From assembly GCF_036971445.1 (NCBI RefSeq), contig NC_091470.1, positions 154,442,001 to 154,506,000 of the forward strand: a stretch of 64,000 nucleotides of DNA. The letters are read 5' to 3'. The stretch is from Narcine bancroftii (taxonomy: Eukaryota). This document shows positions 42,201 to 54,900 of this stretch, in pieces. A model generated the notes under the pieces. That model did no database searches. It was not told the DNA's origin and worked only from the letters and a program-made list of their open reading frames with translations. The translations under genes and the position numbers were made by a program. Each line of letters opens with the position of its first letter. The first letter of the stretch is position 1.

Positions 42201-45200
42201 TAACTGTTCCCTGAGAACAAAGGCCAGGAAGACTCACCCTGGACACCTTGCACCTAGCTTCACAGATGCGCAAGTTATTGGAGGAAGCGGGCAGCCTTAG
42301 TTCCATGAAAAATACAATACTATACTATGGAAAACCATAAAGGAAGCTGGATAAATATGGAACTAGTTAGTCACTCAAATGTAAATCATTTTTTCCATAT
42401 TGAGAGATCAGGCACTGGACCAAACCTGAAATTAATGATCAAGCACAATAGCCTTAAATTCTACGTTTACAAAAGTGAAGAGTAAGGAAAGGTGCAATAA
42501 TCTTGACTTCGGAAGAAGAGGAAGGAAAAGTGCGCAGAACTGTATTTGTTTGTAAAGTGACATGACACAGTTGGAATGAGGAAGATGCAAAGTGCAAAGA
42601 TCCAATCATGGATTCTCTTCTTTTTCAGGTTAGTTATGGGGCCTCCAGTGCTCGACTAAGCAACAAGAAGATCTTCCCATCATTTCTACGAACAGTGCCA
42701 AGTGATAATAACCAAGCCATTGCCATTGTCTCTATTATCAGGAAGTTCAAGTGGAACTGGATTGCTGGAATTGGGAGTGATGATGAATATGGCCAACATG
42801 GGATAGAACTAATCCAGAGATATGCATCACTCCAAGGTATCTGTGTAGGCTACACTGAGAAGATCCCCACATACCCCGGCCTGCCTGGCACCAACCAAAA
42901 ACTTTTGGAGATCCTGGACCACATCAGTCAAATGAAATTTAATGCTATTATCCTCTTCTCCAGTGAGGGACCTGCTCAGGAACTGTTGAAAGAGGCAGTA
43001 AAGATGAACATCACCAGGAAAGTTTGGATTGCAAGTGAAGCCTGGCTTAAATTGAATGTTGTTAACAATATTCCAGGCATTGAGCGCATTGGCACAGTGA
43101 TTGGCTCAGTCATTAACAGCGGCAGCATGCCAGGTTTCGAGGGTTACATTTTAAACCATCTCACCCACATCAGAGATTCGAGGGAACAGAGAATGCGTTG
43201 TTTTAGCCCTTATCCCACTTCACATCATCTCCTCAGAGATGTTCAGCACCTGTCTCCAGATAATCTGTCCATTGTGTTGGATCAGTCAGTAAGATGGGTC
43301 ACCTTCAGTGTGTACACGGCGGTGTACAGTATTGCTCATGCATTACACACTCTACTAAAGTGCCACACTGGAAGATGCCAAACTGCAACAATATGGTACA
43401 CCTGGCAGGTACTAAAAGTTTTAATGTTTATGCCCAGGGTCAAAAATAGTATGAAGATTTGATTTCTTTTTCTGGAAGTGCACCACCTGTTCACAGGGTC
43501 TGTCCACTGGATCCTGTGATCACATCCTATGATCATGGATTCCTTAGTGGTGTGACTTATTTATCTCTCTGTCCTAGATTCAGTGGAAATGAGGTACAGA
43601 GAGATGGTTGACTCCATCAGCTCAGGACAGTTGTTGGTCCTGGCCCGGTGGGGGGGGGGGGGGGGGGGTGGGGGAGAGAGTTGAGGACCAGGGCACTCAA
43701 TGGTCAAAGTATGAGGATCTTTAACGCTTGGGGAAGTTAAACATGAAAGTCTACAGGCACTGTGATTGATGTAAAAACATAATGCTGAAGAAAGTCAGAA
43801 GGTCAGACAGGGTTACTTCATATTGCAAAGATACATAACCAACATTTCAGGCTTGAGCCCTTCATCAAACTACCTTGAAGTGCCCATACCTTGGTGTTGG
43901 TTATGTATCTTTATCTTTGCTATATGTAGTTACCTCGTTTGACCTACTGAGTTTCTCCAGTTTTTATATCCTAGGGGAAGATTTGCAGGTTCTGGATGTC
44001 AAATGTGAGTATAAATGTTGAATAAGGAATTTTTTTTACAATTATTAAAATTTTATTCTTTAAAAAAAGTTTCTCCTTGAGTCAGTTAAAGTTATATAAA
44101 TCATAAGTTACAAAACATAAACTTATCCATAAAATAAACAAACATGGCAGCAAAAATATCAATATAATAATCACGTGTCTATCTAGACCTCTAATAACAA
44201 AAACAAAACTGCTATTCATTAATATGCTTCACCACAACATCTACCACTATACCCCCCAGGAAACCTAGATATTTACCATATTTTTGTGTATCGATATCCA
44301 ATTTATCAAACTGTTTGTGAGACGTGCGTTCAAATGCTGGCACTGGGCCATTTCTGAGGCCCTCTCCTGAAATGATGATCCCCAAATTCTTCCATCCTCA
44401 AAGTATAATTTGGCTTCCAACCATTATACTTGTCTGAATCCAATTTTGAGAGTATTTATCCACCAATAACCCAAGGAGGTCTCCCAAGGCAAAAAGTCTG
44501 GGGCAAAAGGGAATTTGAATACCTGAAAAGTCACCAATATACTGATGTATCATAATCTGGGACAGGACCAAAGTGCATGTACTAAGTCCACTTTATCTGC
44601 CTGAATGAAGAAATTTAATGTTTTTATTGCGCTTGAAAAATGACCACCAAAGGCATTTATTTTTCAGAGAAATAATGAACTGCTGTTTGAATTTCATACA
44701 TCTGTTAAAAAAAAGAGAAATGTAGGGGTAAAAATGATAATTGACAGAGGTCATCAAGTCCCTTTCTAAACAATCTTATTTTAAACACTGCCACATTCAT
44801 GAAGCAGGATCTAGGCCCCAGGTGCCCACCATCACTTTCTGCTGCTCCTCATCTACTTGCTTCCTGAGGCACCTTCCTTGCTGAGTTAAATCTGGAATTT
44901 TCCAACCCTGTAGCATTATGAGTAAGTTACTGGACCAGCAGCTAGAGTACAATCCAGAGATATGAATTTAAACCCCACCATGGCAACTGAGGAACTGAAA
45001 TTGGAGTAATTACATAAAAATAAGGAATTAAAAATGAAAACTTGCATGAGTAAGATGAACAATAAATTTAATGTTGTTAATATTAATTGGGCTCACTAAT
45101 GTTCTTCAAGGAAGGACCTCTTTCATTCTTCCTGATGGTTCCTGACGAAGGGCTCAGGCCTGAAATGTTGTCTGCTTTTGGGCGGCATGGTTAGCACAAT

Positions 45201-48200: not shown

Positions 48201-49684
48201 ATGTAATGGCAGTAATTTGTAGACTGGAATATCCTTTAGGTTCTTTATAAATACAGTAGCAGGTGACAGGAACTGAGTTATAGTTTCGAGTTTTTTTTAA
48301 AGTTTGAGTTTGTTAATAGAATAACAGATATAGTAGACTGGAATATAGTCAAGAATCAGAATCAATTACAGAAATTGGGGGCACATGTAAGCAAGGGGCT
48401 CAGGTGATTTGAATGCAGGATGACACCTTCACAGTCTGCAGTCTAGTTAAGAAGCCTCGCAGTTCGTGAAGGTATAAGATGTAAGGAATTCTCTCACTTC
48501 ATGTGATGTATGTTTTTTGTGAGATTGTGATAACACAGATTCTATCACCAATGTGTATATGTACAGATGGTCGTGTAGGATGACTGTGATTGGCTGAGAG
48601 CGTAGCTGCACCTACTGGCAGGTCTTAAAGTGTTGTTCCTAGCCAGACCAGGTCATTCTGGACTGGTCAACCTACTTGTGATAGGCTCCAGTCTTTTAGT
48701 TAATAGAAGCCTTGGTTTGGGTCGACAAGTCTTTGGTTCTTTCGACGCGCTCTCCAAAGATTGATTGATTTTGCTGTTTCAGGTGGCTATACCTGCTATC
48801 GGTGCCAATCTGATGAGTGGTCTCCGCCAAAAAGCCCTTTGTGTTTGAAGAAAACTCTACAATCCCTGTCCGTGTTCTCGCCTCTCGGAGTGACTCTGCT
48901 GTTGTTCACGATCCTTGAGCTCGCACTAATCGTGACAGTTCTGCTGATTTTCCTGGTGAATTCTGGAACTCCGATCGTGGAAGGTACTGGAGGGAGAGGG
49001 AACATACTCATCCTAATTTCACTCGCACTCTCATGCAGCAGTTCATTGCTGCTCCTGGGGAAACCCACTGAACTGATCTGTAAATCACGCCAGCCCATAA
49101 CTGCTTTCAGCCTCACCATTTGCACTTCTCTTCTGCTGATTAACTCAATACAGATCCTGCTCACCACTGAGCTCACCCATTTAAGCAAGCACTTCCTTGA
49201 CACATACCAACACTGTGGAAGGTACTTTATCCTCTGTGCCAGTCTCGGGGGGCAAGGAGCCATTTGTTACCTATGGCTAAGCACACAGGGCGACTTTCTA
49301 GTGAGGACCAGGGGTGATTCTGAAGATACCCTTTTTCTCTTCTGTAAGAGTGATTCAGAGCTAGTATTCTGGCTGATGTTGGGATACAGTGGCCTGCAGG
49401 CACTAGCCTGCTTTATGTGTACCTTTCTGATCCAAACCCCACCTCGAACCTACAATCTGGCCCGGGAGATTAGTGTCTCCATGATCTTCTATATTACGAT
49501 CTGGATTTGCTTCATCCCAACCTACCCAGGTGTAAACAAGAATCATGCACCTGCTGTACAGATCTCCGCCATACTCCTCAGCTCTTTGGCAATTCTCGGT
49601 GCCTATTTCATCCCCAAATGTTTTGTTCTTTGGTTTAAGCCACAATGCAATACCAGTGATTACTTCCAGGTTTATAATATTTAA
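39215..49684 (+). CDS. Taste receptor type 1 family gene B (T1R3/T1R4-side class C GPCR); exons 39215-39411, 40701-41001, 42629-43408, 45608-45811, 47682-47802, 48783-49684; 834 aa
   Basis: Six GT-AG exons, phases 2,0,0,0,1, 2505 nt open. Motifs: PGDYTIGAIFP, AMAFAIDEINNS, VSYGASS..FPSFLRTVPSD, FKWNWIA, a cysteine-rich domain, and a 7TM with PPRTYNLARE (resembling T1R3 PGRYNRARG rather than NYNEAK). Confidence 0.93.
40150..40385 (+). mobile_element. V-SINE copy
   Basis: B-box GGTTCGAATCC followed by GCTGTCTGTAAAGAGTTTGTATGT..GGGTGCTCCAGTTTCCTC. Confidence 0.7.
41215..41940 (-). mobile_element. Degenerate Rex/Babar-like LINE fragment
   Basis: Reverse-complement similarity to the Rex-type copies (AAGAAAATGCACTAGTGCCTCTATGACCTTAGAAGCCTGAGG; CTGTGAACAGACGCCTGAATGAAC). 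Confidence 0.5.
45180..45380 (+). mobile_element. V-SINE copy (internally deleted)
   Basis: GGGCGGCATGGTTAGC head followed by GCTGTCTGTAAGGTGTTTGTAGGTTCTCCC. Confidence 0.6.
46330..47070 (+). mobile_element. Rex1/Babar-type LINE 3' fragment
   Basis: WCHTNNFELNISKTKEMIVDFRR..FLGVNISEDLS, with a 3' tail GACAATAAATCCTGATCCTGA. Confidence 0.78.
48526..48756 (+). mobile_element. Short solo LTR (~231 bp) next to the exon-6 acceptor of gene B
   Basis: TG...CA ends flanked by GAGAT/AAGAT (5-bp TSD, one mismatch). Internal ATTGG (CCAAT), TTAAA box and a degenerate poly(A) signal in LTR-like order. Confidence 0.6.
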
Positions 49685-50295: not shown

Positions 50296-50702
50296 GTTAG
50301 TCAGGATGACACTAAAATTGAGGTATTGTGGACAGTGAAAAAGGTTTTCAAAGCTTGCATAGGGATTGGAACCAGCTGGAAAATTAGTCTGAAAAATGGC
50401 AGATAGAATTTACTGCATGCAAATGTGAGGTGTTGCAATTTTGAAGGACTAAACAAGAAAGGACTAAACAAGAAAGGACATATACGGTGAATGGTAGGGC
50501 ACTGAGGAGTGTGGTAGAATTTGTGAATACAGTTACATAATTCCCTGTAAGTGGTGTTACAAACAGATAGAATTGTAAAGAGAGATTTTGGCATATTGGC
50601 TTTCATAAATCAAAGTATTGAGTAAAGGAGTTGGATATTGTGGTAAAGTTGTGCGTATAACAGATTGGCGAGGTCAAATTTGGATATTGTGTGAAGTTTT
50701 GG

Positions 50703-51558
50703 TGTAATGGAGGATTGAGACCAGCTTATGCAAGAATGTATACATGTGAATCAGAAGACATAATCTAAATTCCACCATGGGGCCCAGGGATGCAGTTGAA
50801 TCAGAAGACGTAATCTAATTTACACCATGAGGCCCAGAGATGCAATTGAATAAGAAGACATAATCTAATTTACACCATGAGGCCTAGAGATGCATATGAA
50901 TCAGTAGACATAATCTAATTTCCACCATGAGGCCCAGAGATACAGATGAATCAGAAGACATAATCTAAATTCCACCATGGGGCCCAGGGATGCAGTTGAA
51001 TAAGAAGACATCCAATTTACACCATGAGGCCCAGGATGCATATGAATCAGTAGACATAATCTAATTGCCACCATGAGGCCCAGAGATGCAGTTGTCTTTT
51101 GTTGGTCGCAGACTGTCAGGAGACCTTGAAGATAATTTAATCATTTATTCAAAGAGATAAGCTATGAGTAAACAGTTTTTGGGTAATATAAGCCATGGTC
51201 CCACTGCTGAAGTTTGAGACTCTCCGAGAGGTGGCAACATCTCTCAGCAAGAAGAAGAACTTCTAGACTCCAACCAATGTCCCGGTCAGGGGAGGTGGAG
51301 AAGCTGCTACCGGTGCCCAGACAACCTATTGCAAGTGTGTAGTCATTGCCTCGCTTCGGCAGTTGGGACCAGTCCAGGCATTGATAAGTATAATTGGGAA
51401 GGGCTTGCATATTGTAGTTTGAATTCAGCTTTAGATTTAGTAATAAAGATTTGTATAAACTGAAGTGCTCTCTGTGTGTGTCTCTGTTTTCTTTTGGTAG
51501 CTCAAACACTATGACCAATCTAAAATGAACAGTGAGAGGTACAAGTTTACCTAGGACA
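50703..51558 (+). mobile_element. Retroviral-type LTR (~856 bp) with seven ~50-bp tandem repeats in U3
   Basis: TGTAA...GGACA termini, repeat array at 50747-51093, TATAA at 51187 and AATAAA at 51442. Followed by TT and a tRNA primer-binding site. Confidence 0.85.
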
Positions 51559-51560
51559 TT

Positions 51561-51578
51561 TGGCGTAGTCAGCAGGAT
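51561..51578 (+). promoter_or_regulatory. tRNA-Ser primer-binding site (PBS)
   Basis: TGGCGTAGTCAGCAGGAT is 17/18 complementary to the vertebrate tRNA-Ser(AGA/TGA) 3' end ATCCTGCCGACTACGCCA. It lies 2 nt after the LTR CA. Confidence 0.88.
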
Positions 51579-51908
51579 CTCCAAAAATATCTTTGTTCAC
51601 AATGGTCTTATCCAGGGGAATGTCAACTGAGTACCTGGTTGGCATCAGGTGGTTATAATTGTACACTTTTACAAAGGACTTAATTTTGGATCTCTTGGCC
51701 ACCTTCTTCTTACCCATTTTTGCAGTCACTTTTTGAGGGTTCCGATCAATACCAGCAACAAGGGCATGACTGTAAGGCCGATCAGAAGTCCCATCATCAA
51801 TGTTCTTTACAATGACACCTCTGCATCCAGCATAGCGACCAGCCAGCAGCAGAACCACCTTCCCAGGTTTTATAAACTTCCCCATTCCAGCAGCTGCTGT
51901 TCAATGGC
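51571..51908 (-). pseudogene. RPL27: Processed, 3'-truncated 60S ribosomal protein L27 (eL27) pseudogene: ~23 nt 5' UTR plus codons 1-105
   Basis: [65 protein letters not shown]. Intronless, lacks the last ~31 residues and poly(A), and runs directly into the PBS. Confidence 0.95.
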
Positions 51909-54900
51909 AACAGATTGACGAGGTCAAATTTGGATATTGTGTGAAGTTTTGGTCACCTAATTACAGTACAAAAACAATATCAATAGGATGGAAAGAGTGC
52001 AGAGATTTATTAGGATGTTGTACGGACTTCAGGAACTGAATTAAAGGGAAAGGTTAAACAGATTAAGACTTTATTCCCTGGAGTGCAAAAGAAGAAGAAG
52101 GGGAGATTTGATAGAATTATTTAAAATTATGAGGGGTCTAGACAGAGTAAATGTAGGTAGGCTTTTTCCACAGAGGGCAGGTGAGATACAAACCAAAGGA
52201 CATGGGCTAAGGGTGAAAGGGGAAAAATTTAGAGGGAACATTAGGAAGAACTTCTTCACAGAGTGAGTGGTGGGAGGAGTGTGGAACAAACTGTCATCTG
52301 AAGTGGTGAATGCAGGCTTAATTTTAATATTTAAGAAGAATTTGGACAGACACACGGATGGGAGAGATATGGAGGGCTATGGATTGGGTGCAGGTCAGTG
52401 GGACTAGGCAGAAAAATTGATCAGCACAGAGTGGGACTAGGCAGAAAAATTGATCAGCACAGACTAAAAGGGCCAAAGGGGTCTTTTACTGTGCTGTAAT
52501 GTTCTATGGTCCTATGAATAGAAAAGCAGCTCACATGTACAGATGATGGGCATTACATTAATATAGATTGAACCCATGTTGATGCACATGTTCTTCAGTG
52601 AGTGTACTTAACAACAGCATTTATTGTCTTCAGGAGGATTCAATACAGCAGAAATATCTAGTCAATGTCACAACAGGTGTGATGCATTCTGTTGTATTCA
52701 GGGTGAGACATGGGGAGGAGCACAGGCTGCCAGATGATAGGTTTTTGCTGAAAATCAGGAAGATGTACAAACCAGAAACATTGGATGGCATTTACTTTCC
52801 ATGGATATTATATGACCTGCTGAATTTCTCCAGCACTTTTGTGTCCTGCACTAAACCTCAGCATCCGGAGATTTCTTGTTTACCTTTATAACCCTCCTCA
52901 CTGTACCATCACTGAAATGGCTCTGAAGACAAAGCAATCATATAAGCATTTATCAATGTGAGATTATCAGTTAATACACAATGACGTATATCTTCACATC
53001 ATGGACCCAAATCACAAAAGGTTGTATGCTGCTCTCCAAGCCGCTACACTAAAGAGTTGTATTCTCTCCCAATAATGACTGACTTTCTACTTGTTTAATC
53101 AACTGAAAATACACTAATAATGGATCACTGCAGGTGTTACATTTAATCTATGAGATATCTGCTGCATTCAGGTAGACCCAAGCAGTAATGAAATTCCAAG
53201 AAAACAAACTCTGGGATGGAAAACAAGAAATAGGGACAGAAATGACTGAGAGCAACCATGCAGATTAGCAGGACAGATCAAGACTAGAGGACATAAATAT
53301 AGGAGTTCTACTGAATCCAACAGGGAATTCAGGAAAAATACTTCTTTCTGCTGAGCCTAAAAGTGGAAGGAATATGGTGATTTCTCTTAAGAGTCAGTCA
53401 AGGCCAATAGTGTAGGCACAAAATGAGGGAATGAGCACGAGATAGGATATCCTAGAGGCCAGCCACCAGTATAGATTGTTGGGCTGAATGGACAGGATGC
53501 ATTGCAGAACATAGGTGTCTGTGAAAGAATCAACTCCATTCACCCAAACTTTGAACCTGAAAATTAAATCACTTATGGTTTGTGTCTCTTCCATCTCTCG
53601 TTATAACTAAGTCAACCTGTTTTGATATTACTGTACCTTTTATCTATCCATAGATACTCTACGCTTACTCTGTCCGTAGATAATATTACTCATGAATTTG
53701 TTCCAAACTCTTCCACTTCCTATGGGACCATCTGAATGACTTCCTTCATTTTGCAGAAATGTTTTACAGCAAAACTAACTGTCAAACATGATTACAACTC
53801 TGGTTCAAACAAGCTATGTTGGTTCAGCCCAACTGTTAAAATAACTGAGTGGCTTTACAAGTGTAAACTTCCAGCTCAAATATATATTAGTAAATAAGTA
53901 AATGATTTATTCTTTAAGAGTTGCCCAATTTGTTATTTATATATTTGGACATTGAGTGATGAATTTTTGTTTTATACATTATGATTGGCACATTTAGTGG
54001 TATAATACATAGCCCTAAAATTTTCTTATAAGTTATGTTATGCGTTCCACCAGTAGGGCACACAGAACACACTGCCCATGAATATTCCTTAGTTTGGAGA
54101 ATATATTAATATTATAAAAGCCCTAGGAGGCTATTCTTTGTCAGGTATTATGCGAGGTTTTATACAAAGTTCAATTTCAAAGTGACTCAACGACATATTG
54201 TAATTGCCTAAATATCTGCGTATTTCCAGTATGTTTAAAACTGACCTCAGCGTTTTTTATGATATGAAGCCAAATATGCAGTGAGAATACATTTAAATTA
54301 TATTAAAATTTTGTCAAAATCAAGTGCACTGCTTTCCCATGAGAACCCAGCTGTTTGTGTTCAAGGATGAGGGTACATGCTGAGGGTTCCACTACTTCCT
54401 GATGTTCCTTCAAGCTGAGGACTGATGTTAATTACTGATGCAGTGATGGATCTCAGGGACCCATCTGACACCTATTTCCAGCATTTCAAAGCAGCTGGAT
54501 GAGGTTTCTGCAGGTCTCAGGATGGGGGGGGGGGGGGGGGGGGGGGGGGGGGAGGTGGGAAGAGTGGAGTATCACAATAATTCTTTATGGTAGATGTTCT
54601 AGACACCTTCCTAACACGTAGGGGGTGGAGTGTAGCCTTCATATTCTGGTTGCAGGTGTTTTGATCTTCCTTGACAGATGTGTTGAAGAAACAGGAAACT
54701 GTATTAAAAATAACATATTGAGATTGTTGTTCCTGTAATCCAGGAACAAGTACTTGAAGACAAAAATCAGAAGGAATCAAATCAATCAAATAACATATAA
54801 AGTGGCACTTCAAGTGAATATCAGCCAGTATCATCAGCCAGGTTCCAGCTTTGACTTTGGAGAACAGTGTGGCTACATGGTGTTCACAATATAATATACA

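Follow-up and report, generated by a model that had tools for sequence, protein, structure and literature searches.

How did an intron-less, antisense copy of a ribosomal-protein mRNA come to stand directly behind the primer-binding site (PBS) of a single retroviral LTR? The question is raised by positions 50659-51953 of the window, the stretch of 64,000 nucleotides of Narcine bancroftii DNA analysed here, in which a single LTR and an 18-nt PBS run directly into intron-less antisense RPL27, all enclosed by a direct repeat. The initial annotation had read the layout as CR1, block, LTR, PBS, antisense RPL27, the same block and CR1 again, and every listed part was found to be present. It is quite likely that plus-strand strong-stop DNA of an endogenous retrovirus mis-primed on co-packaged RPL27 mRNA and that the product was then integrated by one end.

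The LTR (50703..51558, plus strand, 856 bp, TG...CA) belongs to a large endogenous retrovirus family with 4305 candidates in the genome, and it matches its 39 best other copies at 92-95%. Its left end is flush at TG as in family members, and its U3 is expanded, with about seven tandem units of 50 nt. The dinucleotide between LTR and PBS (51559..51560, plus strand) is TT as had been noted, with the refinement that the family has AT and the window differs by a single-base change. The PBS itself (51561..51578, plus strand, 18 nt) is complementary to the 3' end of tRNA-Ser(AGA): it reads TGG and then 15 nt that are perfectly reverse-complementary to the end of a tRNA-Ser(AGA) gene of the same genome (L177), with 0 mismatches across the 15 encoded nt. 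Departure from the family sequence falls exactly after PBS nt 18, where ordinary members, whose post-PBS leader was checked, go on TGGTCTC, unlike the RPL27 of the window. The viral part of the insert is one complete LTR and exactly the tRNA-copied nucleotides, the leader being absent. Plus-strand strong-stop DNA consists of U3-R-U5 and 18 tRNA-derived nucleotides, and the viral part is taken as such DNA because it has this composition.

The RPL27 copy lies antisense at 51571-51908 with an open frame of 105 codons (Pfam Ribosomal_L27e, E 3e-25), and it has no introns across the parent exon junctions 1/2, 2/3 and 3/4. Its suggested extent, from codon 105 back into the 5' UTR, agrees exon by exon with the parent gene. 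On the minus strand it contains the first 64 nt of exon 4 (51571..51634; parent G000:C24:84332252-84332315), where the copy ends at codon 105, exon 3 (51635..51804; G000:C24:84329662-84329831), exon 2 including the start codon (51805..51887; G000:C24:84327136-84327218) and the last 21 nt of exon 1, which are 5' UTR (51888..51908; G000:C24:84326339-84326359). DNA and protein searches of the genome returned the window and the parent exons and nothing else. The copy is without its 3' part, and a search for poly(A) found no stretch of at least 7 A or 7 T within 50601-52050. At the other end, an RNA contig of organism C fits up to 51908 and then continues as mRNA 5' end, so to speak past the copy, and alignment to RPL27 shows that the copy stops about 20-21 nt before a pyrimidine-rich putative start, this stretch being uncopied. 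Compared with the parent there are 8 non-synonymous and 3 synonymous changes in 318 nt, and judged from its sequence the copy is decaying neutrally. The first 12 nt of the exon-1 part are identical to the parent, and the last nine exon-1 bases include five mismatches to the parent of today. These differing bases prompted the idea of an mRNA from another species, which was not supported by the comparison of organisms: organisms C and D agree with each other at two coding sites in a letter that is absent from the window and organism A, and among the 11 coding differences 8 are given as specific to the window, the other three falling outside the listing. It is more likely that exon 1 of the parent changed afterwards than that the source was a foreign mRNA. 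A micro-exon as the source of the odd UTR bases was also rejected, with no good match in the 9 kb upstream of exon 2.

At the joint, 8 nt (51571..51578, plus strand) belong at once to the end of the PBS and to RPL27 exon 4 in antisense. That the last 8 nt of the PBS are also the complement of RPL27 codons D-P-A was confirmed against parent exon 4, and the overlap is real because the parent gene reads ATCCTGCT at D-P-A; it would be 7 nt if the PBS had the other tRNA variant. This is the sole such match to the PBS end on the 365 nt of RPL27 coding exons 2-4, on which the chance expectation is about 0.006 for 8 nt and 0.02 for 7 nt.

The target is a CR1-type LINE fragment (left side 50305..50703, plus strand; 79% to another CR1 copy over 410 nt, with 40 genome matches at 80-83%, self excluded), which resumes in register at 51954..52430 on the plus strand, directly after the right copy of the block. 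The left copy (50659..50703, plus strand) is a 45-nt direct repeat, and the right copy (51909..51953, plus strand) has one mismatch to it and adjoins the cDNA without microhomology. The duplication is given as 44-45 nt, as the last T of the block is also the first base of the LTR; it encloses LTR and cDNA jointly and abuts both ends exactly. In 19/19 other CR1 copies the block is single, and therefore the doubling is a true, abnormally long duplication, as had been proposed, with a pre-existing CR1 repeat rejected as its origin. The window insert thus far described has one precise TG/CA end, a non-viral other end and a duplication of 44-45 bp versus the 5 bp of the family, seen in 7/8 of the solo LTRs checked. 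No empty allele was found among the contig loose ends listed; the state before insertion is deduced from the CR1 paralogues alone.

An assembly artefact was rejected on the basis of raw-run data. Of 44 words sampled across the two junctions, 91-95% were present in four DNA runs, probably from the sample of the assembly itself, and a contig of run X5, from a second sample, reads through from RPL27 into the duplication with 0 differences; the worry that reads might not span the junctions is contradicted by both. The second sample is labelled as another organism, yet 0 differences were seen in two low-depth contigs of 151 nt, and it counts as support for the junction and as no proof of sharing between species. 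Among the runs on record, no RNA run is listed as carrying the insert.

According to the proposed mechanism, the primer would have been removed and the free PBS end would have paired with RPL27 exon 4 and not with the minus-strand PBS, after which reverse transcriptase, presumably the viral enzyme, would extend this end along the mRNA, a spliced template, toward its 5' end. Copying in this direction would account for the antisense orientation and for the missing 3' part and poly(A). As a speculative step, the second strand may have been primed by a piece of RNA that remained close to the 5' end of the mRNA, from which the 20-nt shortfall would follow. Integrase would then join the intact U3 end and host repair the cDNA end 45 bp upstream, giving a replication dead end that became fixed in the germ line and which would belong to a recurrent class in the family. 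The mis-annealing of the PBS end claimed by the initial annotation is supported by the break at PBS nt 18, the 8-nt microhomology and related loci. Its claim of copying toward the cap held for the direction, and the cap itself was not reached. An L1-type processed pseudogene was rejected, as poly(A) and the 3' end are missing and the duplication takes in the LTR, and the same features fit an L1-independent, 3'-truncated copy. What counts against the proposal is the right junction without microhomology, as the aberrant end usually has some according to PMC5041404. For the window locus we infer copying in the viral complex as opposed to on the chromosome; no feature of the locus itself shows where the cDNA originated.

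A genome scan for LTR and PBS breaks, as had been suggested, added 22 loci, among them products that read through into the tRNA and another antisense host mRNA. This brings to 23 the distinct loci broken at the PBS end or just beyond it, compared with 1062 normal junctions. The error rate is thus about 2% of the PBS-bearing loci of the family, and such counts are a lower bound because exact patterns were used. At position +1, 10 distinct breaks were found among 18 matches, and the small control sets (purines only) gave 0/11 at +4 and 1/11 at +5; another control locus breaks about 18 nt into the leader. Census loci with common landing sites (three in pol, two in gag) are possibly non-independent events. 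Other LTR families, ordinary leaders with point changes, L013 with its 12-nt PBS, two tRNA-derived copies without this LTR (L196, L199) and five extra near-identical copies of the C29 event were dropped, and the readings of ends exclude L134, L137, L143, L198, L201, L208 and L213. Seven loci extend about 5-35 nt into the body of the primer tRNA, three of them reaching the anticodon loop, and this sequence matches real tRNA-Ser genes of the genome; such read-through marks plus-strand strong-stop DNA. Landing sites matched at least 6 of the last 10 nt of the primer end in 10/12 loci with a located viral donor (random 2%), the other two, L140 and L157, having no match to the primer end. Duplications were 5 bp in 6/6 products with two LTR ends and readable flanks, one with a mismatch, and 43-383 bp in 5/10 one-LTR products, the other 5/10 having none in the stretch examined.

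Among the alternatives, the one that survives best is that integration of naked strong-stop DNA through its U3 end came first and that a host or LINE reverse transcriptase extended the PBS end only afterwards, during repair, with RPL27 mRNA in the nucleus as template, which we regard as unlikely. LINEs are abundant in the window, and PMC5041404 proposes that a free 3' end is elongated by host polymerases using adjacent templates, whichever their strand; the templates named in that model are DNA and not spliced RNA. Naked strong-stop DNA may indeed integrate, since at L141 and L160 the PBS or tRNA tail is joined directly to unique flanking DNA; these two were rejected as host mRNA captures, the sequence past the primer end being single-copy and no mRNA copy, and no duplication was found within 8 kb upstream. 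Against later extension speak two other loci. One of the seven read-through loci, L179 (G000:C9:89119932), has LTR, PBS, tRNA read-through, a 7-nt microhomology and a spliced antisense HMGB-like mRNA, past which it returns to gag and a second LTR; its duplication has the normal 5 bp. At L142 two LTRs stand in inverted orientation, with a 5-bp duplication (4 of 5 matching). As both are two-ended with 5-bp duplications, integration in this family came after jumps to RNA-sense templates had been completed, and on this sequence evidence the action of viral reverse transcriptase before integration is supported at these loci.

Far less probable is a normal provirus whose interior was deleted by a break, with repair patching in RPL27 cDNA and 45 bp of the empty homologue. 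Deletions after insertion do exist in the family, as the control breaks at +5 and about 18 nt into the leader indicate. However, a deletion requires a chance break at PBS nt 18, whereas breaks concentrate there, it cannot produce tRNA read-through, and it calls for another switch, to a site lying upstream of the LTR, such an arrangement being present at 5 loci.

A template switch in minus-strand synthesis gives a sense-oriented insert, and such a switch would have yielded the sense orientation here. Ordinary transduction in a two-LTR element that lost one side, or an independent LINE retrocopy beside an LTR, is barely credible: PMC5131818 reports LTR elements that contain parts of mRNAs joined through microsimilarity of about 6 bp, as well as four retrocopies in which element sequence is lost from one flank, but here only one copy was found and no other member carries RPL27 between two LTRs, the 3' and not the 5' end is missing, and the RPL27 piece has neither poly(A) nor a duplication of its own, the single duplication enclosing LTR and cDNA and abutting both ends exactly.

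The plus-strand strong-stop reading brings together errors that are known separately. Host mRNAs are packaged and used as templates (PMC4997597), and one-ended integration with long duplications has been described for ASLV and HIV-1 in PMC5041404, where, as in the window, one end is precise and host repair acts at the other, giving a duplication beyond the normal 4-6 bp, or a deletion. That work used cultured cells and either mutant ends, drugs or a mutant integrase, and the appended sequence came from DNA, whereas the window locus is germ-line and natural and its bad end is host cDNA. Strong-stop synthesis halts before m1A58 (18 nt), with a second stop before position 54 and read-through further on when these fail, and over-extended DNA cannot integrate (PMC8599865); in contrast, seven over-extended products are found here in the genome, rescued by jumps. 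The retrocopies of Tan et al. 2016 are alike in being partial intron-less mRNAs with microsimilarity at the fusion to an LTR element, without poly(A) and L1-independent, and their model is a switch out and back with both LTRs expected, PBS and strong-stop DNA having 0 occurrences in the text (PMC5131818). The window shares the microsimilarity, the partial mRNA and the lack of poly(A), and L179 also the element flanking on two sides and both LTRs. Unlike the type of Tan et al., the window has a switch at the PBS end, a copy antisense to the LTR, one LTR and a 45-bp duplication, the CR1 target coming directly after the cDNA without element sequence on a second side.

Possibly the nearest precedents are older. 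Pulsinelli and Temin (1991) reportedly described plus-strand transfer errors in which strong-stop DNA was mis-transferred at its PBS end, and Dunn, Olsen and Swanstrom (1992) are said to have found cell-derived inserts beside the LTR in unintegrated DNA; by their titles these concern single-round or unintegrated DNA, whereas the copies described here are fixed in a genome. Geuking et al. (2009) reportedly saw IAP reverse transcriptase switch to LCMV RNA near the primer tRNA with integration of the product, the template being an RNA virus in somatic cells and not, as here, a host mRNA. No description of the germ-line class was found in the literature searched, whose coverage leaves the key older strong-stop papers outside. 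The component errors are already known from cell culture.

We give roughly even chances to the wider proposal that plus-strand strong-stop DNA, by mis-priming on any co-packaged RNA, has left in vertebrate genomes a class of retrocopies and rearranged proviruses that is undescribed and can be searched for. Its signature would be an LTR and 18-nt PBS (or tRNA read-through) followed by antisense mRNA, simple enough to be scanned for in any genome, and it would be an L1-independent route to 3'-truncated antisense retrocopies that places antisense gene fragments behind putative LTR promoters. Such fossils would be a germ-line record of a chain of errors, from failed plus-strand transfer to host-RNA priming and one-ended integration, and of the host mRNAs in ancient virions and the stops of reverse transcriptase at primer-tRNA modifications, from which rates, landing-site rules and tRNA stop positions could be read.

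The source family has the order LTR-gag-pro-RT-RNase H-IN-env-LTR, with PBS, PPT and a short duplication. In a natural copy (C8:211.66 Mb) RVT_1, RNase_H and rve are above cut-off and TLV_coat is weak (E 3e-4, below cut-off). Against solved structures the best matches of the family RT, which we take to be foamy-type RTs, have E 2e-30 and the next group 3e-27. Its protein relatives are unnamed vertebrate ERV proteins (best 56%), and the tRNA-Ser PBS, 5-bp duplication and gag motif presumably fit class III (ERV-L / spuma-like).

The initial annotation gave the order of the insertion as CR1, block, LTR, TT, primer-binding site (PBS), antisense RPL27, block and CR1, and this order was borne out at the same coordinates. 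CR1 with the left copy of a 45-nt block (50659-50703) adjoins a plus-strand LTR (TG...CA, 50703-51558), directly 3' of which come TT and the 18-nt PBS (51561-51578, plus strand); RPL27 follows on the minus strand up to 51908, and CR1 resumes after the right copy of the block (51909-51953, one mismatch to the left). When both flanks were aligned to other CR1 copies, the block was single in 19 of 19, and thus the insertion duplicated it. In the PBS, TGG is followed by 15 nt that are perfectly complementary to the 3' end of a tRNA-Ser(AGA) gene from the same genome, in line with the tRNA-Ser identity first assigned to it. The right junction, between cDNA and duplication, is without microhomology, and poly(A), reported as absent, was not found at the insertion.

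In DNA and protein searches, RPL27 was matched only in the window and in the exons of a single parent gene on contig C24. The copy comes from a spliced template, as first read: it begins with the final 21 nt of exon 1, continues through exons 2 and 3 and stops 64 nt into exon 4, and all three introns are missing. The claimed overlap is present in the parent gene, whose antisense sequence at the joint is identical to the final 8 nt of the PBS; no second site with this 8-nt microhomology occurs in 365 nt (approximately 0.006 expected by chance). Copying toward the cap held for its direction, as exon 1 and its 5' UTR are reached, but not for the cap itself, as the copy ends 20-21 nt short of a putative start that is rich in pyrimidines. 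An RNA contig from organism C (a sample label, as is organism D) fits to 51908 and then runs on with a pyrimidine-rich 5' end. There are 11 differences to the parent in 318 coding nt, eight of them non-synonymous, as would be expected for neutral decay. The 3' end of parent exon 1 (L035, G000:C24:84326351-84326359, G000 being this assembly) and the retrocopy disagree at 5 of 9 bases, and organism C RNA and organism D DNA both match the retrocopy to its end; these sequences suggest a burst of change beside the exon 1 splice donor in the parent's lineage.

The LTR belongs to a large family (the best 40 of 4305 candidates were scored, at 92-95% apart from self), which may be a class III endogenous retrovirus, as foamy-type best matches suggest. 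A natural two-LTR copy on C8 encodes RT, RNase H and integrase domains, and env is matched weakly; 5-bp duplications (one mismatch at most) flank seven of the eight solo LTRs checked. Family members have a fixed leader after the PBS, the normal junction being matched at 1062 places, and it differs from the RPL27 continuation in the window, which departs from the family at the first base past PBS nt 18. On the same LTR and leader the PBS varies, with at least three tRNA-Ser isoacceptor types (loci L174, L176, L177, L178). Several LTR-end/PBS/leader units in both orientations cluster within 1-6 kb at G000:C1:31075038-31076491, C1:139071850-139074289, C9:177888624-177894262 and locus L134.

Exact patterns of LTR end, PBS and a non-leader base at +1, +2 or +3 after the PBS gave 18, 50 and 18 matches. 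Matches that belonged to other LTR families, had point mutations in the leader or repeated a single duplicated event (five extra copies) were removed, which left 10, 5 and 2 real breaks; a further 1, 2 and 3 loci came from three wider patterns. The genome scan proposed in the initial annotation thus yielded 23 distinct loci, the window counted and a second antisense host mRNA (L179) included, although not all need be independent because some landing sites are common to several (three loci in pol, two in gag). The control patterns, restricted to purines at +4 and at +5, had 11 matches each, of which 0 and 1 break at that position, and one further control locus breaks approximately 18 nt in. At most loci the jump target is internal viral sequence, sense or antisense. 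In 10 of the 12 loci with a located viral donor (the exceptions are L140 and L157), at least six of the ten terminal primer-end nucleotides agree with the landing site, a level reached by random sites in 2% of draws. Segmental duplication or redundant contigs account for six near-identical copies of a single aberrant element, on C29, C89 and C375 (L138, L144, L145, L077-L079). Fold-back products (L231, G000:C26:4945148; L201, G000:C17:71342721) carry an inverted tRNA read-through or LTR copy after the PBS or a short leader.

Duplication length follows the ends of the product. Where a product has two LTR-type ends and its flanks could be read, the duplication is always 5 bp (six of six: L133, L136, L138, L142 with 4 of 5 bases, L179, L207), whereas long ones flank five of the ten one-LTR products: the window (44-45 bp), L140 (43-44), L157 (44-51), L128 (approximately 61, with a 135-nt insert interrupting it) and L139 (approximately 383). 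No duplication was found within the stretch examined at L129, L132, L135, L141 and L160; seven other loci are outside these counts. Three of the five long duplications, few as they are, cluster at approximately 43-51 bp (window, L140, L157). At L142 (G000:C5:256571943) two inverted LTRs surround a 5.2-kb antisense interior, so that both ends look like U3 ends; annealing of the primer end to the viral RNA itself would give this arrangement. One-end joining by integrase is reported to leave a deletion or a long duplication on one side (PMC5041404), a pattern with which the window-type products agree. L131/L013 (G000:C8:220265062), with LTR, 12 nt of PBS and most of a second LTR ending CA-AT between copies of a 117-bp duplication, looks like a one-ended integration of another aberrant product.

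It is very likely that plus-strand strong-stop DNA mis-primed on RPL27 mRNA packaged alongside it. Extension would have run toward the 5' end of the mRNA, followed by second-strand synthesis; integrase would then have joined the U3 end, and host repair the cDNA end. The anatomy of the insertion, its spliced template, the microhomology, the class of such breaks and the end rule are directly shown, and from them we infer the enzyme, the order of steps and the co-packaging. Retroviral particles are known to take up small amounts of mRNA, and host RNA can be used as template (PMC4997597). The main rival has an identical start and locates the copying at the chromosome, which we consider unlikely. 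The signature recurs with a different gene at L179 (G000:C9:89119932; 89119400-89119960, minus strand), where host mRNA was copied before normal two-ended integration: LTR, PBS, tRNA-Ser(TGA) read-through, antisense mRNA, sense gag, the remainder of the element and a second LTR lie within a 5-bp target duplication. The captured mRNA, presumably HMGB-like from its sequence likeness, is represented by approximately 450 nt (3' UTR, acidic tail and part of the second HMG box). Its parent is on C17 (G000:C17:2274195-2274946), the last intron of which is missing from the copy, and 7 nt are common to primer side and parent at the entry point; one copy of this capture was found.

Seven loci run past the 18 nt into the tRNA-Ser body, by approximately 5, 8, 12, 12-18, 32, 32 and 35 nt, with bases matching tRNA-Ser genes found by ARAGORN; the last three end at the anticodon loop. 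In the established mechanism of reverse transcription the primer tRNA is copied only by plus-strand strong-stop synthesis. Such read-through cannot arise when a normal provirus loses sequence; later deletion with patch repair fits poorly and is very improbable. Ordinary transduction, in which many family members would share the RPL27 segment found here only in the window and parent exons, and a LINE-made copy also fit the evidence poorly and are hardly credible. Modified tRNA bases are known to set the stops of plus-strand strong-stop DNA (PMC8599865). L196 (G000:C5:40165667) and L199 (G000:C11:126232321) hold 3' halves of tRNA-Ser in antisense that include the CCA complement and stop near the anticodon loop; the window-type LTR is absent 5' of them.

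One-ended integration is already known, and LTR-mediated retrocopies with microsimilarity have been described (PMC5131818), but those are expected to have both LTRs, and that description does not mention PBS or strong-stop DNA. The insertion is probably an accident, yet its signature is clean, replicated and scannable. No description of germ-line LTR-PBS-antisense-mRNA fossils or their class was found in the open-access literature searched. Errors of plus-strand transfer and cell-derived inserts next to LTRs are reportedly known from older cell-culture work, which may contain the same PBS-end joint.

Support from reads was obtained for the junctions: 91-95% of 44 sampled words over 51520-51990 were present in four DNA runs, probably from the assembly's own sample, and a second-sample contig covers 51812-51962 with zero differences. 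Among the read-derived pieces listed, none spans the whole insertion and no empty allele was seen. The insertion lies approximately 1 kb downstream of a plus-strand 7tm_3 exon of a divergently oriented class C GPCR gene pair (exons at 15387-16328 and 26019-27068, minus strand, and 42566-43459 and 48707-49681, plus strand; ANF_receptor and 7tm_3 domains), which we assume to be V2R/taste-receptor-like. The window also holds a LINE reverse transcriptase with a 680-codon open stretch at 34585-36624 on the minus strand (RVT_1, weak zf-RVT).
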